Source: a virus
Virus record (IMG/VR): IMGVR_UViG_3300020202_000017
Strand: one strand, 5' to 3'
Length of the DNA: 49,607 nucleotides
Shown here: positions 22,403 to 46,514 of the stretch, one piece after another
How the letters are laid out: each line of letters starts with the position of its first letter
How positions within the stretch are numbered: position 1 is the stretch's first letter
Translations under genes and position numbers: made by a program
Notes under the pieces: model-generated
Told to the model about the DNA's origin: nothing
What the model saw: only the letters and a program-made list of their open reading frames with translations
Databases searched by the model: none

Positions 22403-22639
22403 GTGGACACCCCTCCGCCAGAACTGCGCCATCCGGAGTGGCTGGTAAAGCTGGTCATCGAGCCGCTGAAGCCACGCAACCGCCTGCGTACGGCGAGGTG
22501 GGTCCTGACGCTGTTTCTCTCTGCCGCGGTCGCCGGGATGTTCCGAGAAGTAACGCACATGATTGCGATGCGCCTGGAGTGGGAACCGCCGCCCCCGAGG
22601 TCCGGGGAGCGGATGCCGGGGGTCGACCCGGTGAAGTGA
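22403..22639 (+). CDS. Single-pass membrane protein, 78 aa (lysis-module candidate)
   Basis: GTG start. One hydrophobic helix (WVLTLFLSAAVAGMF) flanked by charged segments. Lies upstream of the holin and endolysin. Confidence 0.4.
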   Translation: MDTPPPELRHPEWLVKLVIEPLKPRNRLRTARWVLTLFLSAAVAGMFREVTHMIAMRLEWEPPPPRSGERMPGVDPVK

Positions 22640-22897
22640 GTGGAGATGTCGAATGAGGAATATCCCAGCCGAGGAACGGGCGACTGGCGCGACCTCGACA
22701 AGGCTGAGGTGCACACCCTCAGAGTCGTCTTCCGAGCGCTTGAAGCTGCTGGAACGGCTGGCCTCAGGAGCGTTGTCGCTCTTGAGCAAGCTACAGGAGA
22801 TCAACGCCGCGCACTTACCAGAGAAATCCGAGAACAACTCAAATACGTCTGTGACGTCGGACTTAGCTGCGTCGACGCCCTGAAAGGATGCGAATGA
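22640..22897 (+). CDS. Hypothetical protein, 85 aa
   Basis: GTG immediately follows the upstream TGA, and its stop overlaps the holin ATG (ATGA). Confidence 0.45.
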   Translation: MEMSNEEYPSRGTGDWRDLDKAEVHTLRVVFRALEAAGTAGLRSVVALEQATGDQRRALTREIREQLKYVCDVGLSCVDALKGCE

Positions 22898-23145
22898 AAA
22901 TCAAGAATGCGAAGAACAAGGTACTGGCCGCCGTCGCCTCCACCGTTGCCGGCGCCGGGGCGGTTGTTGGCCTGGCCGCGACGGGCGTAGGCCTTCCAGC
23001 CGCCATCGTGACCGCGGCGAAGTGGATTGTCACCTGGGGGACGGTCTTCGGGGTCGTGGCCGCCAAAGCCCTCCCCGGGAACGGGAAGAACGCCCCCAAG
23101 AAAGACGCCCGCGGCCAAATCGCCGACGCCGAAGACCCCCGATGA
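22894..23145 (+). CDS. Holin candidate, 2 TM, 83 aa
   Basis: ATGA coupling with AAAGGA 5 nt upstream. Two hydrophobic helices (VLAAVASTVAGAGAVVGLAA; WIVTWGTVFGVVAA) and a charged C-terminus. Lies just upstream of the endolysin. Confidence 0.5.
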   Translation: MKIKNAKNKVLAAVASTVAGAGAVVGLAATGVGLPAAIVTAAKWIVTWGTVFGVVAAKALPGNGKNAPKKDARGQIADAEDPR

Positions 23146-23222
23146 CCACCCGGGACTCGGTGTTCTTCTGCGCTGGGGCCGTCCTGGTTCTTGGAGTCGT
23201 CCTCATAGCCCTATTCGTATGA
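23142..23222 (+). CDS. 26-aa single-TM micropeptide (lysis cassette)
   Basis: MTTRDSVFFCAGAVLVLGVVLIALFV. Flanked on both sides by ATGA overlaps (holin stop and endolysin start). Confidence 0.4.
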   Translation: MTTRDSVFFCAGAVLVLGVVLIALFV

Positions 23223-23737
23223 GCGTTAACCTCCCCCCATCGCCGTTCCGCGACCCTCCCCCTCTGCCAATCACCGACGGGGAGGCGTTCCGGCTATCCC
23301 TCTTGCGCCCAGATGCAAGGGCCAGGGCCGAGGGAGTCATGCGGCGGATGATGCAGCGGGGGCACGACTGCCCATACGTCGGGTCAACCAGGCGTACCCA
23401 GCGAGAGCAGGAAGACGCCCAGAGACGAGGGACCAGCTCCGCGTCCCAGACCCTGTCCTGGCACCTCCTGGACCGAGCAGTCGACTTCAGGAAGCGCCTC
23501 CCAGGGAACAAGCCAGACCCGACCACCAAGGACGAGAGGTTCTTCCTGGACCTCTGGGAGTGCGCAGAGGAAGAGGGGATGCGCTGCCTCGGCTTCGAAA
23601 AGGACCACGCCGGTAAGCCCGTGAAGCTCTATATCAACAACGGCAAGCTGTGGGACCCTGGCCACTGCGAATGGCGCCAGCCCTACGTTTCTCTCGTCCA
23701 GGCCACCGCGGCGGAGGCGCCCTACCTCATCGCCTAG
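23219..23737 (+). CDS. Endolysin, peptidase M15 (VanY / L-Ala-D-Glu peptidase-like)
   Basis: ATGA-coupled internal start of track ORF 23027..23737. Zn-ligand-type motifs SWHLLDRAVD (SxHxxxxAxD) and DPGHCEW. 172 aa with no wall-binding domain. Confidence 0.65.
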   Translation: MSVNLPPSPFRDPPPLPITDGEAFRLSLLRPDARARAEGVMRRMMQRGHDCPYVGSTRRTQREQEDAQRRGTSSASQTLSWHLLDRAVDFRKRLPGNKPDPTTKDERFFLDLWECAEEEGMRCLGFEKDHAGKPVKLYINNGKLWDPGHCEWRQPYVSLVQATAAEAPYLIA

Positions 23738-23940
23738 CGGACCCGCTTTCGCTTTAGCGGGTTCTTAGACTGCCTCCAAAGCAGCCACCCCATAACCCCC
23801 GTGGCCAACGTGAAAACGGGGATGCACACGAGAACCACCCACGTCTCGTCTGCCCAGAGGGCAGACCACGCGCTCACGCTGGCGGCACTGATAGATACCA
23901 CCCACGCCGCCGCTTCTTTCTTGGTGATAGGTTGATTCAA
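23734..23940 (-). CDS. 2-TM small membrane protein, 68 aa (last gene of the leftward operon)
   Basis: TTG start overlapping the HTTM stop (TTGA). Helices AAAWVVSISAASVSAWSALWA and WVVLVCIPVFTLATGVMGWLLW, with basic tail KNPLKRKRVR. Its stop shares the CTAG with the endolysin stop. Confidence 0.4.
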   Translation of the reverse strand: MNQPITKKEAAAWVVSISAASVSAWSALWADETWVVLVCIPVFTLATGVMGWLLWRQSKNPLKRKRVR

Positions 23941-25175
23941 AGGGTCACCCGACAAACGAGCCGTCCGTCTGAGTAGAAGGCTACAGCGTACTTCCCATTC
24001 CCCCCTAGCTCCCGGTCGAACTTCACAAGCGTCTCTACCCTCCAGCGGTCGATATCCTCCACCCAGCACCTATCCCCCATCCCAACCCTTTCTCTCCTCC
24101 ACATGAGCGCCACGCCGTAGTAGATGCGCTCCGAGGCATGCCAGGCGAGCCTGCCACCTTTCTCGTCGTTCAAGGGGAGCCGGGTTTCCTTGCCACCCTC
24201 GAGCCGATAGAGAACCGCGTAACTCTCGTTCGTCCGAAGGTCCGTCCGGTTGAAGACGTTCACCGGGGATATGCCAAGGTGCTCAGAGAGGACGGGCAGG
24301 GGGTTGACGCTCCCGGCGACAGGGTAGTCCGCTACCGCCAGAAGACACCCAGCGACGAACACGAACACCCCTATCCCTGCTCGATTCCCCTCGGGGGGCT
24401 GGAGCTTGAGCGGGGGACCCCAGAAAACCAGGGCCCACAGGAGGAGCTCGAAGTACGGGAGCCACGCCAGGTGCAACAGGAGAGCGCTGGAGACGAAGAA
24501 GGCGAGCCCATAGCCACAGACCGCCAGTCGGCCGAATCGGCTTCCCCAGAGCGCAAGGGGAAGCATTAGGACCTCCCACGCAAGCATCGCCAGGGTGGCG
24601 ACCAGGGACCCCACGGAAGCAGCTCCCGGGAGCCTCGCTACGACCCACCGAAAGGCGTCGGCGTGGGCGCTGAAGTAGGGGTTGGTGAACACCAGAACCT
24701 GAGCCTCTCCCGAGCGCCAGAGCCGGTCCTGCAGGTGAAACTGCGCGGCCGAGAGAGAGGCCACGGCGTAGGCCGTAAGCGCCATGAGGCGGAGCAGATT
24801 CGCCCTGCTCTCCGTCGGAGAGCCCCATACGCGGTAGATAGCCGTGACCCACCGCCAGCGTAGTCGGGCGTCCAGGGACAGCTCCGTCCCGGCTGGCAAG
24901 AAGGCCATGACCAGGCAGAGCATCTGCACGACCATCGTAGACAGGGACCAGGACAAAAGAACTTGGTCCGCGTGCCACTGGAACAGAAATAGGGAGAGAG
25001 CTGCGAGCGGCGCCAGAAACCCCACTGCGAGCATGAGCGCCGCTGACAGCTCGAAGCCTATAGCAAGCCACTGTGCCGGCGACGTATCCAGGTGCGCCAG
25101 GGCCCACAGGTTCGTCCCGTAGCGGTGGAGCAGGACAGCCCCAAAGGCTATCCGGATGAGGTTGATGCGGAACAC
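23937..25175 (-). CDS. HTTM-domain (vitamin K gamma-carboxylase/SdpB-like) polytopic membrane protein with a ~110-aa soluble C-terminal domain
   Basis: 412 aa, GTG start, about 8-9 hydrophobic helices. The N-terminus NLIRIAFGAVLL..., then ..FLFQWHADQVLLSW..MAFLPAGTELSLDARL, align by eye with the HTTM core (FRxxFG ... NHxYL ... SxDxLL). Confidence 0.5.
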   Translation of the reverse strand: MFRINLIRIAFGAVLLHRYGTNLWALAHLDTSPAQWLAIGFELSAALMLAVGFLAPLAALSLFLFQWHADQVLLSWSLSTMVVQMLCLVMAFLPAGTELSLDARLRWRWVTAIYRVWGSPTESRANLLRLMALTAYAVASLSAAQFHLQDRLWRSGEAQVLVFTNPYFSAHADAFRWVVARLPGAASVGSLVATLAMLAWEVLMLPLALWGSRFGRLAVCGYGLAFFVSSALLLHLAWLPYFELLLWALVFWGPPLKLQPPEGNRAGIGVFVFVAGCLLAVADYPVAGSVNPLPVLSEHLGISPVNVFNRTDLRTNESYAVLYRLEGGKETRLPLNDEKGGRLAWHASERIYYGVALMWRRERVGMGDRCWVEDIDRWRVETLVKFDRELGGNGKYAVAFYSDGRLVCRVTL

Positions 25176-25333
25176 GGGGGGCCGCCGAGTATCGCCTTCT
25201 CTTCCCGCAGCAACAACTCCAGCTCGACGCGCTCTCTCTGCTCCCCTGCGATCACCCTCGCCTGTAGCTCTTCCCTGGCTCTCTTGGAGAGCTTCCCGGT
25301 AACGAGGGCGTAGGCCCCTTCGGGGATGGTCAT
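25148..25333 (-). CDS. Hypothetical 61-aa charged helical protein
   Basis: ATG overlaps the VRR-NUC stop (ATGA). High third-position GC. Overlaps the HTTM start by 28 nt. Confidence 0.4.
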   Translation of the reverse strand: MTIPEGAYALVTGKLSKRAREELQARVIAGEQRERVELELLLREEKAILGGPPCSASTSSG

Positions 25334-25608
25334 ACCTTCAGCCCGCACGCCCTCAAGGCTTCCTCCTCCGTCTGGACCACGAAGTAGGACCATGGGAAGA
25401 GCTTCTGTAGCGCCTGCTCGGACTCAGTGAGCTTGCGGCAGTGAGGGGGGCCTGGTTTTTTGATCTCGAGAAACACAACCTCTCCTCCCAGGGTCTCTGT
25501 GACGAGGTCGCACCCAAAGCCGTGGTACCTGGCCACGTCCTTTACTGGGCGCCCAATGCGTTCCAGGGCTCGCTTGATGGGCAGGTGATTGACATCAGTT
25601 CGGTACAC
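25330..25608 (-). CDS. VRR-NUC-type PD-(D/E)xK nuclease, 92 aa
   Basis: GTG 25608 with GAAGGAGG 10 nt upstream (the track ORF extends to 25671). Motif GFGCDLVTETLGGEVVFLEIKKPG..KLTESEQ fits G-x-PD...E-x-K...Q of VRR-NUC. Confidence 0.55.
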   Translation of the reverse strand: MYRTDVNHLPIKRALERIGRPVKDVARYHGFGCDLVTETLGGEVVFLEIKKPGPPHCRKLTESEQALQKLFPWSYFVVQTEEEALRACGLKV

Positions 25609-25610
25609 TC

Positions 25611-25877
25611 CTAGTTCGCCTCCTTCTCCAGGCGCTCTTTCGTGCAGCCAGCACACGACGGGTCCGTACATGGCAAGAGCAGAGAGGCCGCCTCTTCGTT
25701 CGAGAGTCCCGCCCTCCTGAGCCTCCGTACGAATTCCACGGTGGCGTGAGCCGTCCCCTCGCCCAGCCCTGACCTAAACCCCCTCTTTATGGCAACCCGG
25801 TAGATGGGGACCCATGCAACTACCGCGAGAACGGACGTCCCGAAGAAGACGACCACCGCAAACGCCTCTGCGCTCAT
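25611..25877 (-). CDS. N-terminally membrane-anchored protein with a possible HTH, 88 aa (first gene of the leftward operon)
   Basis: TM helix AFAVVVFFGTSVLAVVAWVPIY, then ..VEFVRRLRRAGLSNEEAASLL.. (resolvase/sigma-r4-like HTH look), then a CxxxxCxxC tail. Confidence 0.5.
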   Translation of the reverse strand: MSAEAFAVVVFFGTSVLAVVAWVPIYRVAIKRGFRSGLGEGTAHATVEFVRRLRRAGLSNEEAASLLLPCTDPSCAGCTKERLEKEAN

Positions 25878-25895
25878 CGTGATATTCCTTTCGAG

Positions 25896-26333
25896 GTGGA
25901 CCGTGACGAACTCCTCCGCCTAGCCGACCAAGCAGCCGCCCTAGCCCTGGAGAACGAGAAAACAGCGGCCATGCTGCGCCGCCAGGAAGCCCGATTCCGA
26001 GAGATGGCGGAGGAGGTCACGCGCGAAAGAGTATTGCACAACCGTTTACAACCGTCTACAGTAAACGGCAACATGCACTCTGCCCAGCGCTTGGCCATCT
26101 CCGCGGGCGTATCCGGGGATGACGCCTTTCTACAGACCATCCGCTCCGCCAAGCCAAAGGGGTACACCCAGAACGCCCTGGCCACGGCCATAGGCGTTAG
26201 CGACGGCCTTCTAAGCCTCTACCGCCATGGTAAGCGAAAAATCCCCCTGAAACGCGCCAAGCGCATCGAGAAACTTACGGGCTGGCCCGCAGACGCCGAG
26301 CACTGGCCCGGCGGCATCGTCGATATCGAGTAG
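25896..26333 (+). CDS. XRE/Cro-C1-type HTH regulator, 145 aa (alternative start ATG 26073 gives 86 aa)
   Basis: C-terminal HTH YTQNALATAIGVSDGLLSLYRHGKRKIPLKRAKRIEKLTG. It is divergent from the leftward operon. The inverted repeat at 26042-26068 lies just upstream of the alternative start. Confidence 0.65.
   Translation: MDRDELLRLADQAAALALENEKTAAMLRRQEARFREMAEEVTRERVLHNRLQPSTVNGNMHSAQRLAISAGVSGDDAFLQTIRSAKPKGYTQNALATAIGVSDGLLSLYRHGKRKIPLKRAKRIEKLTGWPADAEHWPGGIVDIE
26042..26068. promoter_or_regulatory. Operator-like inverted repeat CCGTTTAC-N11-GTAAACGG
   Basis: Perfect 8-nt arms at 26042-26049 and 26061-26068. The same half-site recurs at 26381-26404. Confidence 0.45.
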
Positions 26334-26371
26334 CTGTCCGACGGGCTATGTCGATTTTTGAAGAAAGAGCG

Positions 26372-26404
26372 TTGACACCTGTAAACACTTACTCTACCGT
26401 TTAC
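26372..26404 (+). promoter_or_regulatory. Candidate early promoter (TTGACA-17-TACCGT) overlapped by the inverted repeat GTAAAC-N12-GTTTAC
   Basis: -35 TTGACA at 26372-26377 and -10 TACCGT at 26395-26400 (TAnnnT). The ATG of the next ORF is at 26407, which suggests a leaderless or near-leaderless transcript. Half-sites at 26381-26386 and 26399-26404. Confidence 0.45.
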
Positions 26405-26406
26405 TC

Positions 26407-26652
26407 ATGCTCGAACTTCAAAGCTGGCACGACATGAGCGAGGCCGAGTACGAGTACCGGCTGGAGGACGCCCCGGCCAACCCCCGCTGCCACTGGTGCG
26501 GCCTGGCTGTCGCGGAGACAGACCCCCAGGTACGGGAGACCCAGCAGGGGGTGTCCTGGGTGTTCCATGCGGAGTGCTTTGAGAGCCACGCGGACCGGAC
26601 CCCGACGTCCGTTCGGGAGACCCGGGTGACTCGAATAGTGGAGGTGAAGTGA
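26407..26652 (+). CDS. Hypothetical Cys/His protein, 81 aa
   Basis: First ORF after the candidate promoter. CHWCG .. HAECFESH. Alternative start ATG 26434. Confidence 0.5.
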   Translation: MLELQSWHDMSEAEYEYRLEDAPANPRCHWCGLAVAETDPQVRETQQGVSWVFHAECFESHADRTPTSVRETRVTRIVEVK

Positions 26653-26653
26653 C

Positions 26654-26878
26654 ATGGCCTGCAATGGCTTCGAGGAGACGGTAGACGGGCGTCTGGTGTT
26701 TTGGTTCGTTGGCTACGGCGACGAGTCGACCGGCTGGTGCGTTGACGAGCGGCGCGGAGGAAAGCTGGTTCGCATCCTGTCAGGCATCCGCTCATACGAG
26801 GACGCCGTGAAGAGCGGGCGTGGGTATTACAGCCAGCTTCGCGCCTCCCTCCCTACCCAGAAGGGAGCCCGCCGATGA
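26654..26878 (+). CDS. Hypothetical protein, 74 aa
   Basis: GGAGGTGAAG RBS. ATG lies 2 nt after the upstream stop. Confidence 0.6.
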   Translation: MACNGFEETVDGRLVFWFVGYGDESTGWCVDERRGGKLVRILSGIRSYEDAVKSGRGYYSQLRASLPTQKGARR

Positions 26879-27036
26879 ACACGCTGCTGGACATCGAAGA
26901 ATTTCCAAGGTGCCCCGTGTGCCGTGGCCGGGAGGCCCATGCCAGCGAGATGATCGACATCTCGAAGGCCATTACGACGCCGGAACTGCGACCCGCCCAC
27001 CCGGTGCTCGTTTGCCGTGAGTGCGCCAATGGTTAG
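26875..27036 (+). CDS. Zinc-ribbon miniprotein, 53 aa (not in the ORF track)
   Basis: ATGA overlap with the upstream stop. Translated by hand: MNTLLDIEEFPRCPVCRGREAH..VLVCRECANG. Two CxxC pairs. Confidence 0.5.
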   Translation: MNTLLDIEEFPRCPVCRGREAHASEMIDISKAITTPELRPAHPVLVCRECANG

Positions 27037-33993: not shown

Positions 33994-35061
33994 ATGGGGT
34001 TGGCGGACGAGATAGCGGCGAAGGTACTGCTCGGGCTGGGCGCAACGCAGACGCCCGCTGGCAAAAAGCAGCCATCAATTTCGGTGGGCCAGCTGTACAT
34101 GAAGTATCGCGGCTCGAAGCCTCGTGGGTTGGCCTGGCGAATTGAGCGACAGAACCTCCGGTACTTCATCCTCCGCTACTGGCGGCGCCCCTGTGACTCG
34201 CTGACCCAGGTGGACTGGGACCGGCACAGAGAGCTCCGGCGGGGTGAGAAGACGCGCCAGGGAAGGCCCCCGGCTGAGTCCACGATGAACGTGGACTTGA
34301 CCCGTACGAAGCAAATGTTTTGGTACGGGGTGAACGCGGGGCTGATCGAAAAGCACCCCTTCCCGAAAGCCAAATTCGTGAAGGCCAAGAAGCGGAGGGG
34401 GACGGCGCCCAATGCTGCGCAGGTGAACGAAATCCTCGCCCACGTCGGATGCCTCCGGTACCACTACCAACAGATAACCGTCCGCGCTCTGGTGTGCGTG
34501 ATGGCGGACACTGGGGCTCGCATATCCGAGGCCATGGGCCTGCGCTGGGACAGGATCACGCTACGCTGGACTACGACCGTCCTGGGCAAGGGGGACAAAA
34601 CCAGACCCATCGCCTTCACGTCTCGAGCGCGCGAGGCGCTGTCCGCCATTCCCCGTCACCCCTCTAGTCCGTACGTGTTCACCAACTACACAAGTGGGCA
34701 GCGATGGAAAACGGGAACTGTCCGCGGGTGGTTCTACCGGGTCGTGGACGAGTGCGGCTTGAACGACATCTGCATCGACGGGGACGCGCGGATTGTCCCT
34801 CACCACCTTCGCCACTCCTTCGCCACTGAAGCGGACCGGCGAGGAGCAACCCTCACTCAGATTCAACACGCCCTTGGGCATGCCTCCGCAAAAACCACCG
34901 AGCTCTATCTCCACAAGGACAAAGAAAATAACGCCGTGGAGATTTCCAGGATTATGGAGGGCGGACGCAGGCTTATGAGACGCGGCCCCAGGAAGTCAAG
35001 TCACGAACCAGAAAAAAATCTGGACACGTCTCAAGGCAGTAGGGCAAAGTACATTTCGTGA
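33994..35061 (+). CDS. int: Tyrosine integrase
   Basis: 355 aa. Catalytic signature ..ADTGARISEA.. (Arg), HHLRHSFAT (HxxR) and LGHASAKTTELYLH (Tyr). Confidence 0.9.
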   Translation: MGLADEIAAKVLLGLGATQTPAGKKQPSISVGQLYMKYRGSKPRGLAWRIERQNLRYFILRYWRRPCDSLTQVDWDRHRELRRGEKTRQGRPPAESTMNVDLTRTKQMFWYGVNAGLIEKHPFPKAKFVKAKKRRGTAPNAAQVNEILAHVGCLRYHYQQITVRALVCVMADTGARISEAMGLRWDRITLRWTTTVLGKGDKTRPIAFTSRAREALSAIPRHPSSPYVFTNYTSGQRWKTGTVRGWFYRVVDECGLNDICIDGDARIVPHHLRHSFATEADRRGATLTQIQHALGHASAKTTELYLHKDKENNAVEISRIMEGGRRLMRRGPRKSSHEPEKNLDTSQGSRAKYIS

Positions 35062-36901: not shown

Positions 36902-36993
36902 GGTGTAGCCGCTGTCAGCGCCGTTGCGGCGCTACCAAGCTCTTTGCTGGAAAGCCTTATTGCTGTGGCTGCTACCCGGCGGTGATTGGGTGA
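36898..36993 (+). CDS. 31-aa zinc-ribbon micro-ORF (not in the ORF track)
   Basis: VRCSRCQRRCGATKLFAGKPYCCGCYPAVIG. GTGA overlaps at both ends. Confidence 0.4.
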   Translation: MRCSRCQRRCGATKLFAGKPYCCGCYPAVIG

Positions 36994-37343
36994 TTGCCGC
37001 GATTGTGGGCAGCAGGAGTGGTCTCGACTGGGCGCGGGTGCGCTCGGGAATTAAGGCCATTGTTTCCCGGGCTGACATCGGGACGGTAGTCAGCGGTGGA
37101 GCGCTCGGCGTAGACCGGATAGCCGAATCCATGGCGCTCGCAGCCGGCAAGCGAGTGCGTGTGTTCTACCCGGACTGGGAAAAGTACGGCCGCAGCGCCG
37201 GCATGAGGCGCAACCGAGAAATAGTCTCATTGGCTGACGAGGTGTTCGCCTTCTGGGACGGGAAGAGTCGCGGAACTAAGAACAGCATCGAGACGGCTCG
37301 CAAGCTTGGCAAAACCGTCCACGTGTTCGAGGTGCCAGTGTGA
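36990..37343 (+). CDS. SLOG-fold protein, DUF2493/YpsA-like (Rossmann-like nucleotide-binding)
   Basis: ..VVSGGALGVDRIAE..YPDWEKYGRSAGMRRNREIVSLADEVFAFWDGKSRGTKNSIETARKLGKTVHVF. GGxxGxD plus RN..iv..aD and wdG.SrGT motifs. Confidence 0.5.
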   Translation: MIAAIVGSRSGLDWARVRSGIKAIVSRADIGTVVSGGALGVDRIAESMALAAGKRVRVFYPDWEKYGRSAGMRRNREIVSLADEVFAFWDGKSRGTKNSIETARKLGKTVHVFEVPV

Positions 37344-40650: not shown

Positions 40651-41061
40651 GTGGGAAGCGTGAACAAGGTGATTCTAGTAGGCAACCTGGGAGCGGACCC
40701 GGAACTCAAGTACACCCAGCAGCAAAAGGCCCTCTGCAACCTCCGCGTAGCAACGCAGGAGACCTGGAAGGACAAATCAGGGGCGAAGCAAGAAAAGACC
40801 GAATGGCACCGGGTCACCGTATGGGGCGACCAGGCCGAGAACTGCGAGAAGTACCTGGCCAAGGGACGCTCGGTCTACGTAGAGGGGCGTCTTCAGACTA
40901 GGAGCTTCGACAAGGACGGCCACAAGCACTACGCCACCGACATTGTAGCTGACAAGGTGGTGTTCCTCGGTGGAGGGAAGGGCGAAGAGAAGCAGGAGCC
41001 GAAGTCCACCGCCAAACACTATGAGTCGGACCCCTATGGGGACGACGATGTGGATTTCTAG
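40651..41061 (+). CDS. ssb: Single-stranded DNA-binding protein
   Basis: OB-fold signature VNKVILVGNLGADPELKYT..TEWHRVTVWG..AENCEKYLAKGRSVYVEGRLQTRSF.. and an acidic tail DDDVDF. Confidence 0.9.
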   Translation: MGSVNKVILVGNLGADPELKYTQQQKALCNLRVATQETWKDKSGAKQEKTEWHRVTVWGDQAENCEKYLAKGRSVYVEGRLQTRSFDKDGHKHYATDIVADKVVFLGGGKGEEKQEPKSTAKHYESDPYGDDDVDF

Positions 41062-43873: not shown

Positions 43874-44266
43874 CTAGGCGGCACTCTTCGCCTCAGCCGC
43901 GAACAGCGCGCGAGCAGCGGCCATTCCGCCAAGCGCCTGAAGCTGGAGGAAGCGCTCCCCCTTCGGGCCGACCTTCGAGTCCAGCCACGACTGAAACACG
44001 CGGTACTCGACGTCAGCCGCAGCGTTGCGAGCGGCCGTCTCAGCGCGGACCTTGGCGTCGTCGGCATTTCGAGCCGCCTTCCGGACCTCGACCGACTCAA
44101 TGCCCATGGCGCGAGCCGCACACACGCAACCGAAGTAGACCGTCTCGTCGCCCGCGTCGTGGTCACACAGGGCGACCGTCCCCTTGAGGTCCTTTCGGCC
44201 GCAGCAATCGCAGATGGTGACCTCGTCCGTCGTCCCGAGCACCGTGAACCGCTTCGTCTTGGTCAT
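43874..44266 (-). CDS. Hypothetical protein, 130 aa, N-terminal Cys cluster (CDCC..C..C.C)
   Basis: Leftward gene divergent from the excisionase-like HTH. The C-terminal half is Ala/Arg-rich and helical. Confidence 0.6.
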   Translation of the reverse strand: MTKTKRFTVLGTTDEVTICDCCGRKDLKGTVALCDHDAGDETVYFGCVCAARAMGIESVEVRKAARNADDAKVRAETAARNAAADVEYRVFQSWLDSKVGPKGERFLQLQALGGMAAARALFAAEAKSAA

Positions 44267-44341
44267 ACCCAGATACTCAGCACATCACATGCCAAGGTGC
44301 AATGCACGCTAACTATGTGTAATCACCACGCCAGGTATTCG

Positions 44342-44367
44342 GCTGTCTCAGGTATCTGAGAGACAGC
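44342..44367. promoter_or_regulatory. Palindrome GCTGTCTCAG-gtat-CTGAgaGACAGC (core TCTCAG-N4-CTGAGA)
   Basis: Core at 44346-44361, in the divergent intergenic region 44267-44449. CAGGTAT is also directly repeated at 44332 and 44349. Confidence 0.45.
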
Positions 44368-44404
44368 TCGACCTAAGTCCGCTGAAACCAAGGCTGTCGC
44401 TCAA

Positions 44405-44420
44405 TCTCAGAATCCTGAGG
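44405..44420. promoter_or_regulatory. Second copy of the TCTCAG-N4-CTGAG palindrome
   Basis: TCTCAGaatcCTGAGG. GGCTGTC also recurs (44341 and 44392), so the two sites are paralogous. Confidence 0.4.
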
Positions 44421-44449
44421 CAACTTGAGAATCTGATAGTCTAAGGTCC

Positions 44450-44647
44450 ATGGGAAGACGCGCGCCTGCACGTCGGTACACTTCAAGGGAGTTGGCCAAG
44501 GCCCTCGGTTGCCACATCCGCACCGTCCAGCGAGCCATGCTCCGAGGCGACCTCAAGGGGTACAAGGCTGCGAGCGGGTACTACTGGGCCATCCCAGAGG
44601 AGGCCGTCGTGTCGTGGCTCTCAACCCGCGAGACCAGGAGACGCTGA
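44450..44647 (+). CDS. Excisionase/MerR-like HTH (HTH_17-type) protein, 65 aa
   Basis: YTSRELAKALGCHIRTVQRAMLRGDLKGYKAASGYYWAIPEEAVVSWL matches the excisionase-family HTH pattern. Confidence 0.6.
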   Translation: MGRRAPARRYTSRELAKALGCHIRTVQRAMLRGDLKGYKAASGYYWAIPEEAVVSWLSTRETRRR

Positions 44648-45200
44648 ACCGGGAACGGGCGTGAGATGGGATATTCCTCCCCCCTCTCCCATTAGCCTTC
44701 CAACCCCCGTCTCATCCCAACCGCCATCACCCAGCCTCTACTCAGCCTCGAGATTACCCCTGCCTTCGTGACCACCCCCACCCCCCCAAAGTGGCGAGAG
44801 AGATGTGTGGGGATATATCACCTCTCACAAAATTCAACCACCCATCCCTTTGACGCAGGCAGTCGGTCGATTCGAAGTGACGTGACACTGCGTGTAGGGT
44901 ACCGTCGTTTTGTGCTCGAGCGGTACCACCGGATGATAGCCAAGGCCGTGGCCAAGGGGCCAGCGCAGCTAGGCCGTGAGGCGGACCGACTCTTGAGGCG
45001 TGCGGTTTCCCTGGAAGCGGACGTGACCCGCGAGGCGGGGCGTTCGAAGGCTGAGGCTGTGTTACGGCGAGGTACGACCCACCCGGCGTAGGTGTGAAGA
45101 GGCGGTCAATAACCCAAGCGGGGACGACTTGGGGTAACGCCGCTTCTTGCTGCAGAGTACCAACCCTAGCAGGAGCCAGACACTTAAGAGACCCGGAGCG

Positions 45201-45218
45201 CAAGACCTAGCGGTCTTG
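45201..45218 (-). terminator. Hairpin CAAGACC-tagc-GGTCTTG at the end of the leftward 45801-45207 operon
   Basis: 7-bp stem. The stop codon of the 53-aa ORF lies in the loop. There is no clear U-tract. Confidence 0.3.
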
Positions 45219-45368
45219 CTTAGTTCCCGGTCTGCCTAGGTAGCGGGCTAGGTTCCGCTTGTGCTCCAGGGCTTTGATTTCCTCGGGGGTGAGCCTTCTG
45301 AGGGGGCCGGGCTTGCGTATCTCGTAGGCGTGCTTGGAACGCTCTGAGGCGGGGACTCCCGGCTTCAC
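45207..45368 (-). CDS. Basic miniprotein, 53 aa (not in the ORF track)
   Basis: Hand translation: VKPGVPASERSKHAYEIRKPGPLRRLTPEEIKALEHKRNLARYLGRPGTKQDR. GTG overlaps the upstream stop (GTGA). Confidence 0.35.
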   Translation of the reverse strand: MKPGVPASERSKHAYEIRKPGPLRRLTPEEIKALEHKRNLARYLGRPGTKQDR

Positions 45369-45628
45369 CCTCTCAGTCCCTTCAGCTCTGAGTCGATGTC
45401 CCGGAGGTCAGACCCGCAGTCCTGAACGCCGCGCCAGTCCTCGTCCTGGAACTTCAGGAGTAGGTCCGCCTTCGTGCCTACCCGCTTCTTGAGGAGGAAC
45501 TCGATGCGGGCTTGTCTGGCCTCGGCGGGGCTCTTTTCGCCGGTCGGCCCCCAAGCGCCGTTTAGCCGCCTCCGGATGCCGGCCGGTGGTTCGTAGTTCT
45601 CTAGCAACTCCATCAGGCTTTTCGGCAT
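45365..45628 (-). CDS. Hypothetical protein, 87 aa
   Basis: ATG 45628 lies 8 nt after GGAGG and overlaps the HTH gene stop by 1 nt (the track ORF opens at 45643). Confidence 0.5.
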   Translation of the reverse strand: MPKSLMELLENYEPPAGIRRRLNGAWGPTGEKSPAEARQARIEFLLKKRVGTKADLLLKFQDEDWRGVQDCGSDLRDIDSELKGLRG

Positions 45629-45801
45629 CACCGCCCCCTCCATCGCTTCCGCTTCCTGATGAGCGTCGTGGGACTAATCCCCAGCTCCATGGCTATCCGG
45701 TACTGAGGGACCTCCGGGTGGGCGGCTAGCGTCGCCTCGATGTGCTCCCGCTCCACCTCCCGAAGCGGCTTGATGGGCGGCTGCGTCTGGGTGGCTGTCA
45801 T
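45628..45801 (-). CDS. Stand-alone Fis/NtrC-C-terminal-type HTH protein, 57 aa
   Basis: Internal ATG of track ORF 45628..46266. LREVEREHIEATLAAHPEVPQYRIAMELGISPTTLIRKRKRW fits the Fis-type HTH pattern. Confidence 0.55.
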   Translation of the reverse strand: MTATQTQPPIKPLREVEREHIEATLAAHPEVPQYRIAMELGISPTTLIRKRKRWRGR

Positions 45802-45818
45802 TTCGCCCTTCAGCTTTG

Positions 45819-45874
45819 CATACGCTAAATGACATTGCAATACGATACACGTATGGTACCGTCGTGACCATACG
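45819..45874. promoter_or_regulatory. Phased ATACG/CGTAT repeats and the inverted repeat CGTATGGT-N9-ACCATACG in the divergent late-operon control region
   Basis: ATACG at 45820, 45840 and 45870, and CGTAT at 45850 (spacings 20/10/20). Inverted repeat at 45850-45857 and 45867-45874. The relatively AT-rich patch spans 45802-45876. Confidence 0.45.
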
Positions 45875-45876
45875 TC

Positions 45877-46182
45877 ATGGGACAGCATCGGACGAACCCA
45901 GTAGCCATCGCGAACGCCCAGCCTCAGCGACAGGTGCAGGTCACCCCGATAGGGGAGGGGCACTGCGTAGTGGGGCTGTCCCTGCTTCCGACCCAGGACG
46001 CTGAGGGGAACTTCTGTGTAGTCCTGGCGGCTATCTGCGGGCGGCAATCTGACCTGGTTCCCATGAAGCCGGTCCCGGTGTTCCTGGCGGAGGTCGCCAA
46101 GGTGAAGCTGGAAGACCTTCGGAAGCGGATAGGGGAGATGTTGGATGGGCCGGAGGAAGAGCCGGCGGTGGCTGCGCCGTGA
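45877..46182 (+). CDS. Hypothetical protein, 101 aa (first gene of the rightward late operon)
   Basis: First ORF after the divergent control region. Its stop overlaps the next start. Confidence 0.5.
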   Translation: MGQHRTNPVAIANAQPQRQVQVTPIGEGHCVVGLSLLPTQDAEGNFCVVLAAICGRQSDLVPMKPVPVFLAEVAKVKLEDLRKRIGEMLDGPEEEPAVAAP

Positions 46183-46514
46183 GCGACTACTCCGACTGGA
46201 TTGACCGCCTTGCCGTGGAATACGCCGGCCGACCCGTCCAGGAGGCAATGCGCGCGGCGGTCGCAAGGATGGGCACGCTGACCGTGTGCTCGGTGTGCGA
46301 GCAGGAAGCCAAGCACGTCCATCTTCGCGGCACGATGTGGCTCAGGCGCGGAACGCTTGGCCCAAGTATGTCGTTCTGTCGGACGCTAGTAGGGGTTGCC
46401 GGAGGCATTGAGCGCCTGCTGTCCGAATGGGACCAGGTTGACTGGGACGGCAAGCCGGTAGCGAAGACGCCGGATGAGACGCGGGTCGTCGACTGGGTGG
46501 ATGACCGCAAATGA
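46179..46514 (+). CDS. Hypothetical protein, 111 aa
   Basis: GTGA-coupled at the start and ATGA-coupled at the end. Confidence 0.55.
   Translation: MSDYSDWIDRLAVEYAGRPVQEAMRAAVARMGTLTVCSVCEQEAKHVHLRGTMWLRRGTLGPSMSFCRTLVGVAGGIERLLSEWDQVDWDGKPVAKTPDETRVVDWVDDRK

Follow-up and report, generated by a model that had tools for sequence, protein, structure and literature searches.

The virus record IMGVR_UViG_3300020202_000017 of IMG/VR, a stretch of 49,607 nucleotides that we call the window, carries a leftward block of five open reading frames (ORFs), A to E, between the lysis genes and a divergently transcribed gene for a helix-turn-helix (HTH) regulator. An earlier note on this DNA had taken the five ORFs for one tightly coupled unit, joining a VRR-NUC nuclease to membrane proteins, and had proposed them as an undescribed system encoded by a prophage. 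The layout was read directly from the sequence and is as that note gave it. All five ORFs lie on the minus strand. ORF A (25877-25611, 88 aa) starts with ATG and is separated by a 2-nt gap from ORF B (25608-25330, 92 aa), which starts with GTG and shares an ATGA overlap with ORF C (25333-25148, 61 aa). The last 28 nt of C overlap the start of ORF D (25175-23937, 412 aa, GTG start), and D shares a TTGA overlap with ORF E (23940-23734, 68 aa, TTG start), whose stop codon overlaps by 4 nt that of the convergent putative endolysin gene. The Shine-Dalgarno-like GAAGGAGG noted ahead of B is present at 25626-25619 on the minus strand, 10 nt before the GTG. Together, the five ORFs make up a tight leftward unit, and the neighbouring genes on both flanks are on the plus strand.

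All five ORFs appear to be real genes. Their in-frame composition is of the coding type, with a G+C content of 0.73-0.83 at third codon positions (GC3) against 0.40-0.52 at second positions (GC2). An independent assembly from ENA contains the operon with 100% identity, and A, B, C, and D were called with the same boundaries in public assemblies (L007 and L008), in which E is uncalled. The start of B agrees with the N-termini of its homologs (MYRTD...) and with a public gene call of 92 aa (P0157). A longer B, starting from the ATG at 25671, would overlap A by 61 nt, and both the homologs and the gene callers favor the 92-aa protein.

Eight genomic contexts of B and six of D were compared to determine which of these genes travel together. 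Five sister phages (L006, L009, L010, L015, and L016) share the same layout, in which a regulator of ~145-165 aa is divergent from a short operon containing B and variable genes, and this operon runs into a convergent lysis cassette. The content of the operon differs each time. It encodes proteins of 55, 65, and 74 aa followed by B in L006; a 121-aa protein, B, and a 236-aa protein in L009; proteins of 106 aa (with a transmembrane segment), 77 aa (three transmembrane segments), 84 aa, and 57 aa, then B and a 56-aa protein in L010; proteins of 76 and 142 aa, B, and proteins of 90 and 65 aa in L015; and proteins of 91 and 174 aa followed by B in L016. The corresponding order in the window is A, B, C, D, E. 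In an all-against-all BLASTP comparison of the operon proteins, the B proteins alone were linked to each other. In two more distantly related groups, L011/L012 and L014, B is found in a co-directional early operon, which in L011/L012 also encodes ERF and PDDEXK_1 proteins. B thus occurs in seven further loci (L006, L009, L010, L011/L012, L014, L015, and L016) with unrelated neighbors, and no D-like protein was found in any B-bearing comparison locus. Conversely, D homologs occur on contigs that lack A, B, C, and E and in which no neighbor is conserved as a partner. Relatives of D and B were also scanned for in viral, genome, and metagenome contig collections, which returned pattern matches only, none of them confirmed.

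The proposal of a five-gene system coupling a nuclease to membrane proteins fails by the measure of co-occurrence that the earlier note had itself chosen, as the gene set is not conserved across loci: only B is shared, D homologs occur without A, B, C, and E, and the five ORFs were not found together elsewhere within the data compared. The position attributed to the block in the same proposal, namely a slot for accessory genes, agrees with the comparison, as the content of the slot differs in every related phage examined and consists of variable, unrelated genes set between the conserved regulator, B, and the lysis genes. Searches against PADLOC-DB 2.0 (E up to 0.1) gave no match for A to E or for five cargo proteins of the sister phages. 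In L010 (2933-3550), two small membrane proteins, one of 106 aa with an N-terminal transmembrane segment and one of 77 aa with ~3 such segments, have no relationship to A or E. Proteins of this kind, small and membrane-bound, are a recurrent cargo of the slot.

ORF B was first compared with curated families. It gave no significant match to Pfam (E up to 10), PHROGs, NCBIfam, or PADLOC, and hidden Markov model (HMM) searches of the window proteins with the HTTM (PF05090) and VRR_NUC (PF08774) models of Pfam returned no match at E up to 1 (up to 10 for D), nor did these proteins match a nuclease or HTTM family of NCBIfam or PHROGs. However, three relatives with 61-67% identity were found in a protein database search, and a profile search extended the family to at least 719 proteins of ~95 aa; none of these has a precomputed Pfam domain, and two are labeled 'Holliday junction resolvase' by JGI. 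A tblastn search of B against phages gave no match. Residues D5, D34, E48, and K50 are invariant across an alignment of 60 sequences. When the 60 relatives were scanned singly, weak matches were obtained to VRR_NUC for 12 (best E 1.9e-4), to Hjc for 10, and to NOV_C for 12, all three being PD-(D/E)xK families. The B profile matched 4qbn_A in the PDB with an E-value of 0.0037; the DARPin/ankyrin matches that dominate this search are spurious and come from a 'GH-EIV--LL--GADV'-like stretch.

The structure prediction points in the same direction. The AlphaFold (AF2) model of B has a pLDDT of 94.2 and the order alpha-beta-beta-alpha-beta-alpha, and Foldseek ranks 1-4 are taken by 4qbn, 4qbo, and 4qbl (probability 0.97-1.0, TM-score 0.56-0.62, with E-values of 0.01-0.04 that are modest for a 92-aa query), followed by Hjc resolvases. 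The single-domain VRR-Nuc proteins 4QBN (saNUC), 4QBO (stNUC), and 4QBL (psNUC), which come from a Salmonella phage, a Streptococcus phage, and Psychrobacter, have been shown to dimerize and to cut four-way junctions (Pennell et al. 2014, PMC4103454). B resembles them in its size (~92-100 aa in a single domain), in its PD-(D/E)xK residues (D34, E48, and K50), in its predicted fold, and in being encoded by a phage. It differs from them by an identity of only 10-20%, by the lack of a Pfam VRR_NUC score, by the additional invariant N-terminal D5, and by its place in a short operon divergent from a regulator. Archaeal Hjc is the next closest after the single-domain VRR-Nuc proteins. B therefore falls outside PF08774 by the curated threshold and inside it by catalytic triad and structural similarity; the VRR-NUC label that it had received holds through the matches of its family, the 4qbn profile match, and Foldseek, but not through a direct HMM match. 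As modeled, B is a single-domain PD-(D/E)xK nuclease of a divergent VRR-Nuc/Hjc type and, by analogy with its structural neighbors, most likely a dimeric resolvase of Holliday junctions or branched DNA. This would be an ordinary phage function. Besides B, the phage has genes for RecT, SSB, and a replication initiator, and no other resolvase family was detected among the ~30 ORFs scanned.

In ORF D, a polytopic membrane domain of ~9 helices (residues 1-290) precedes a conserved alpha/beta C-terminal domain of ~110 aa, which we consider to be extracytoplasmic throughout the family. Neither an HTTM model nor any other model of Pfam (E up to 10), NCBIfam, or PHROGs matched D. The HTTM HMM also failed to match six close homologs (E up to 10) and 20 further relatives (E up to 0.01-0.1), and the weak matches recorded in the family were to DoxX (E 0.057) and DoxD (E 0.0014), the six close relatives matching DoxX only. 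A profile search of 1.84 billion cluster representatives gave 454 relatives, counted as clusters at 50% identity, and no curated model exists for this family. The nearest homologs are 50-55% identical, measure 453-491 aa, and are found in cellular contigs, where the neighboring genes encode FtsX, glyoxalase, TonB-plug, ArsR/AHSA1, PIG-L, alcohol dehydrogenase, carbamoyltransferase, a GGDEF/sigma-54 regulator, and a PIN toxin. In two of these contigs (L001, 6029-6857; L003, 5515-6365), a pair of genes for an ArsR-type HTH protein and an AHSA1/SRPBCC protein lies 1-2 kb downstream of the D homolog, which may be mere synteny of related genomes.

In several members of 600-800 aa, a DCC1-like thiol-disulfide oxidoreductase (PF04134/DUF393) is inserted behind the membrane domain and ahead of the C-terminal one. 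This insert was seen in P0009, P0012, P0025, P0079, P0092, and a Neorhizobium protein; about half of the longer members tested have it. The Neorhizobium protein, from Neorhizobium galegae (683 aa; L013, 4698-6749), is annotated as a DUF393 protein, with the DCC1-like domain at residues 370-479. Among GenBank phages, D relatives were found only in Rhizobium phages RHph_N28_2 and RHph_TM3_3_14B, both of 693 aa. In RHph_N28_2 (MN988516.1; L005, 4809-6890), the gene lies between the tail-fibre and GH19 lysis genes and stands alone on the strand opposite to them. The Rhizobium phages represent a second capture of a D-like gene, independent of the one in the window.

The fold of D was recognized from its AF2 model (pLDDT 68). 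The human vitamin-K-dependent gamma-glutamyl carboxylase (GGCX) occupies all of Foldseek ranks 1-13 against the PDB (probability 1.0, E 1e-4 to 4e-3, TM-score 0.38-0.45), and the probability of the next match drops to 0.08. Among the predicted viral structures of BFVD, the single match to D is Yasminevirus A0A5K0UBG6, and no phage protein matched; A0A5K0UBG6 is a carboxylase-like epoxidase-desaturase (PMC13486548). Sequence profiles of D built from 7 and 74 sequences did not match GGCX in the PDB. In GGCX, vitamin K hydroquinone is deprotonated by the catalytic base K218 (PMC12589487, PMC13486548), and it is kept in the carboxylase-like proteins of giant viruses (PMC13486548). D has no counterpart of this residue: lysine is absent from residues 1-256, and the 74-sequence alignment of the family shows no lysine-conserved column apart from K/R at position 3. 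The chemistry of D must differ from that of GGCX because this lysine is absent. The invariant polar residues of the family are R8, R18, D102, H147, and E243 (membrane domain) together with N309, D312, R342, and R361 (C-terminal domain). No gene for VKOR was noticed near D.

D thus shares with GGCX and HTTM proteins a polytopic membrane domain that precedes an extracytoplasmic one, and its family shares with them the association with DCC1-like thiol oxidoreductases and the weak DoxX/DoxD matches. Canonical HTTM proteins are likewise associated with DCC1-like domains. D differs from them by the lack of an HTTM HMM match, of a profile match, and of a K218 counterpart, and by its low TM-score. The description of D as HTTM-like, also proposed before, is correct at the level of the predicted fold, as seen in the Foldseek matches to GGCX, but membership in HTTM is not established, as PF05090 did not match. 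The presence of this carboxylase-fold family in a tailed phage is unusual.

The three other ORFs encode small proteins. A has an N-terminal transmembrane anchor, with a maximum Kyte-Doolittle hydropathy of 2.42 over 19 residues in the region of residues 1-28, a helical, cysteine-containing tail, and a GC3 of 0.76. Searches against Pfam, PHROG, NCBIfam, and PADLOC gave for A a sub-threshold match to MerR-DNA-bind alone (E 0.071). Of its earlier description as a membrane-anchored protein with an HTH look, the membrane segment remains, but the HTH does not reach significance. A role for A as the phage repressor was considered and rejected, as its HTH match falls short of significance and the sister phages do not share the gene. 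C is a charged helical protein whose GC3 is 0.83 and GC2 0.43 outside the overlap with D. E is small and hydrophobic, with a strongly basic C-terminus (RQSKNPLKRKRVR) and a GC3 of 0.75 against 0.52 at first positions (GC1) and 0.51 for GC2. It had been described as a peptide with two transmembrane segments; one of these is strong (residues 32-55, hydropathy 2.17) but the other (~11-30) is weaker, and two segments are plausible only. We also considered E as a frameshifted remnant of the C-terminus of D, and rejected this because the tails of D homologs are short and dissimilar. A, C, and E had no homolog in the comparison loci and fetched proteins by BLASTP and phmmer. From these comparisons, they are provisionally specific to this phage.

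Taken together, the operon is probably a mosaic, in which a variable accessory slot surrounds the backbone resolvase gene B and carries cargo, not a system. B would serve the RecT-based recombination, the replication, and the packaging of the phage, and the remainder, A plus the C-D-E block, would be cargo specific to this lineage. D appears to be a cellular gene captured by the phage. Its product could be a membrane-embedded, probably quinone-linked redox enzyme that acts on a thiol or another envelope substrate. Its catalytic center might be built from R8, R18, D102, H147, and E243, and not from the lysine of GGCX. This suggestion follows from the fold of GGCX, whose membrane domain binds vitamin K hydroquinone, from the similarity to DoxX/DoxD, and from the DCC1-like insertion; we hold the specific redox chemistry as tentative and somewhat doubtful. 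D might then be carried as a moron that changes the envelope or the redox state of the infected or lysogenic cell, with C and E as co-translated small proteins, E perhaps being a partner or substrate of D. Like phage morons, the cargo varies in content between syntenic relatives, has cellular homologs, lies next to lysis genes, and is opposed to the flanking transcription, and a D-like gene is found in a comparable slot of the Rhizobium phage. Unlike morons, it has no detected promoter or terminator of its own and is translationally linked to the backbone gene B rather than autonomous.

Several points weigh against the view of the operon as a mosaic. The ORFs are packed as tightly as in a functional operon (2-nt gap, ATGA, 28-nt, and TTGA overlaps), and it is possible that the five genes are co-expressed and hence share some functional link. 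B is in an operon divergent from the regulator and not in the RecT recombination module, which is unusual for a resolvase here. The contexts compared, eight and six, are few. The comparison of A, C, and E excluded the 5.8-billion-protein database, which makes the lack of a detected homolog provisional. The model of D is of moderate confidence (pLDDT 68, TM-score 0.40-0.45), and no residue-level superposition on GGCX was possible. Finally, D is only 55% identical to its nearest cellular homolog, and we infer both the donor and the direction of the transfer.

Alternatively, C-D-E, or D-E, could be a self-contained cassette, in which D modifies, matures, or inserts the peptide E, and E acts as a toxin, an immunity factor, or a superinfection-exclusion factor expressed from the phage. 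SdpB and SdpC, an HTTM protein and a toxin peptide, provide an analogy for D and E. Indeed, E begins within the D stop codon (TTGA), implying that their translation is coupled, it has a coding-type GC3, a transmembrane segment, and a basic tail, and D is placed in an accessory slot. HTTM-domain proteins also occur in clusters for the maturation of peptides (linaridins) (PMC9927463). However, an Sdp-type arrangement was not recovered around the D homologs, as no E- or C-related small ORF flanks them in L001-L005 and L013 (four cellular contigs, one Rhizobium phage, and one Neorhizobium replicon), and members of the D family mostly stand alone or are fused to a DCC1-like domain rather than accompanied by precursor peptides. 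In addition, E has no leader-like or cysteine-rich features (one cysteine), it is not called by public gene callers, and D lacks the catalytic lysine of GGCX. A peptide cassette seems unlikely to us. The wider proposal is that all five genes form an undescribed device for abortive infection or exclusion, A, D, and E sensing infection or an envelope perturbation and releasing or activating B. A small PD-(D/E)xK nuclease does adjoin membrane proteins in one tight operon, the sister phage L010 has small membrane proteins in the equivalent operon, and VRR-Nuc domains can act elsewhere as toxic effectors, as reported for TseV of a type VI secretion system (PMC9635880). Yet B is found in eight loci with unrelated, mostly soluble partners, none of them D-like, and in L011/L012 it lies amid recombination and replication genes. 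PADLOC has no model for the five proteins or for the cargo of the sisters, and the structures closest to B are resolvases, not effectors. Such a device is highly improbable.

A different reading concerns the number of genes. C and D could be one gene, if a -1 frameshift or transcriptional slippage on C_CCC_CCG fused the 52 N-terminal residues of C to D; the 61-aa C would then be the product of non-shifted termination, and D would gain an N-terminal cytoplasmic extension. A run of six cytosines (25176-25181, minus strand) lies directly 5' of the GTG of D and, with its flanks (25182-25175), reads C_CCC_CCG in the frame of C. D is in the -1 frame of C, and the heptamer fits X_XXY_YYZ and abuts the GTG. 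This GTG comes two codons ahead of the first conserved residue, D homologs have 13-50 extra N-terminal residues, and upstream of the GTG the D frame stays open over 59 codons, none of them a start codon (previous stop at 25353-25355). The independent assemblies L007 and L008 show the same run, which is therefore not an assembly error. On the other hand, C shows no similarity to the N-termini of the homologs, GGCGG 6 nt upstream of the GTG is a possible weak ribosome-binding site, and short overlaps of adjacent phage genes are common. The fusion of C and D is a speculation that we consider improbable, and it would alter the gene count and not the overall interpretation of the operon as a mosaic.

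The mosaic interpretation has several consequences. It removes a false lead, as the proximity of a nuclease to membrane proteins reflects phage mosaicism here, not a defense module. More than 700 small phage nucleases, so far without annotation in Pfam or PHROGs, find a place within the VRR-Nuc/Hjc resolvase type. A bacterial membrane family of ~450 clusters emerges with the fold of the vitamin-K carboxylase, no catalytic lysine, and, frequently, a DCC thiol oxidoreductase as an insert. With its 412 aa, its phage origin, and the giant-virus precedent, D is a compact and convenient object for probing the carboxylase fold outside animals and, with it, the long-standing question of what bacterial HTTM-like proteins do. 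One could also imagine that D, possibly with E, is the first phage-borne representative of a lysine-less branch of this fold, being a new quinone/thiol redox or peptide-modifying enzyme, which we regard as rather unlikely. If true, this branch would use a center made of R8, R18, D102, H147, and E243, and many of its members would be coupled to a DCC-type oxidoreductase. Phages would have taken it up on two or more occasions, using it to remodel the envelope of the infected or lysogenic cell, in parallel with the vitamin-K redox modules of giant viruses (PMC13486548).

The genes that flank the operon, a regulator gene and a putative endolysin gene, have counterparts in sister phages. The regulator (25896-26333, plus strand, 145 aa) has a C-terminal HTH_3 domain (Pfam E 2e-6), matches PHROG families of transcriptional regulators/repressors, and opens the rightward early operon; it is conserved in sister phages, with a tblastn identity of 44-49% in L006 and L010. 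On the other side, the putative endolysin gene (23219-23737, plus strand) is convergent with the operon, and its start was placed by comparison with sister proteins. From residue 82 onward, the ORF 23027-23737 can be aligned with the equivalently placed gene of L009 (62% identity) and of L006 (46%). This endolysin candidate has no Pfam match, and its function is suggested by its position and an SxHxxxxAxD-like motif. In the three sister loci compared, the regulator and endolysin are 44-62% identical to their counterparts.

The start codons of A and the divergent regulator are separated by 18 nt (25878-25895). In five sister phages (L006, ~1361-1378; L009, 1018-1035; L010, 2919-2932; L015, 4301-4352; L016, 4103-4171), this gap measures 7-69 nt, and 14-19 nt in three of them. 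Since the starts are so close, both promoters must be located within the coding regions of the opposing genes, unless the mRNAs are leaderless. A consensus scan of 22500-27000 found no sigma-70-like promoter, with the proviso that this consensus may not be that of the host. No terminator-like hairpin was found between E and the endolysin gene; terminator-like matches elsewhere are intragenic and uninformative. A repeat search around the divergent starts gave weak inverted repeats only.

The window is a complete phage genome (~49.6 kb) with terminal redundancy, and not a prophage seen inside a chromosome, as its first 100 nt are repeated at its end (a terminal redundancy of at least 100 nt) and the same genome was assembled with different circular permutations from at least eight public samples (49,621-49,644 nt). 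It is probably circularly closed, and its G+C content is ~63%. A megablast search of 23000-27000 against GenBank phages gave no match, with no close relative there, and an exact look-up of protein P0001 returned no record. The phage is temperate and tailed and carries a tyrosine integrase gene (33994-35061, plus strand), which lies within the rightward early operon, far from the regulator. Its large terminase is ~39% identical to those of HMO-2011/CRP-type phages, and further recognizable genes encode RecT, an HNH endonuclease, a replication initiator, and SSB (40651-41061). A 139-aa protein with SLOG/YspA (YAcAr) and DprA-like similarity is encoded in the early region near SSB (36924-37343, plus strand). 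Nearly all genes are carried by the plus strand, and the five-ORF block is one of two or three small blocks on the minus strand. A second such block (43874-46266) encodes, at 45628-46266, a protein of 212 aa that has an HTH_8 domain of the Fis type and could be a lysogeny regulator.

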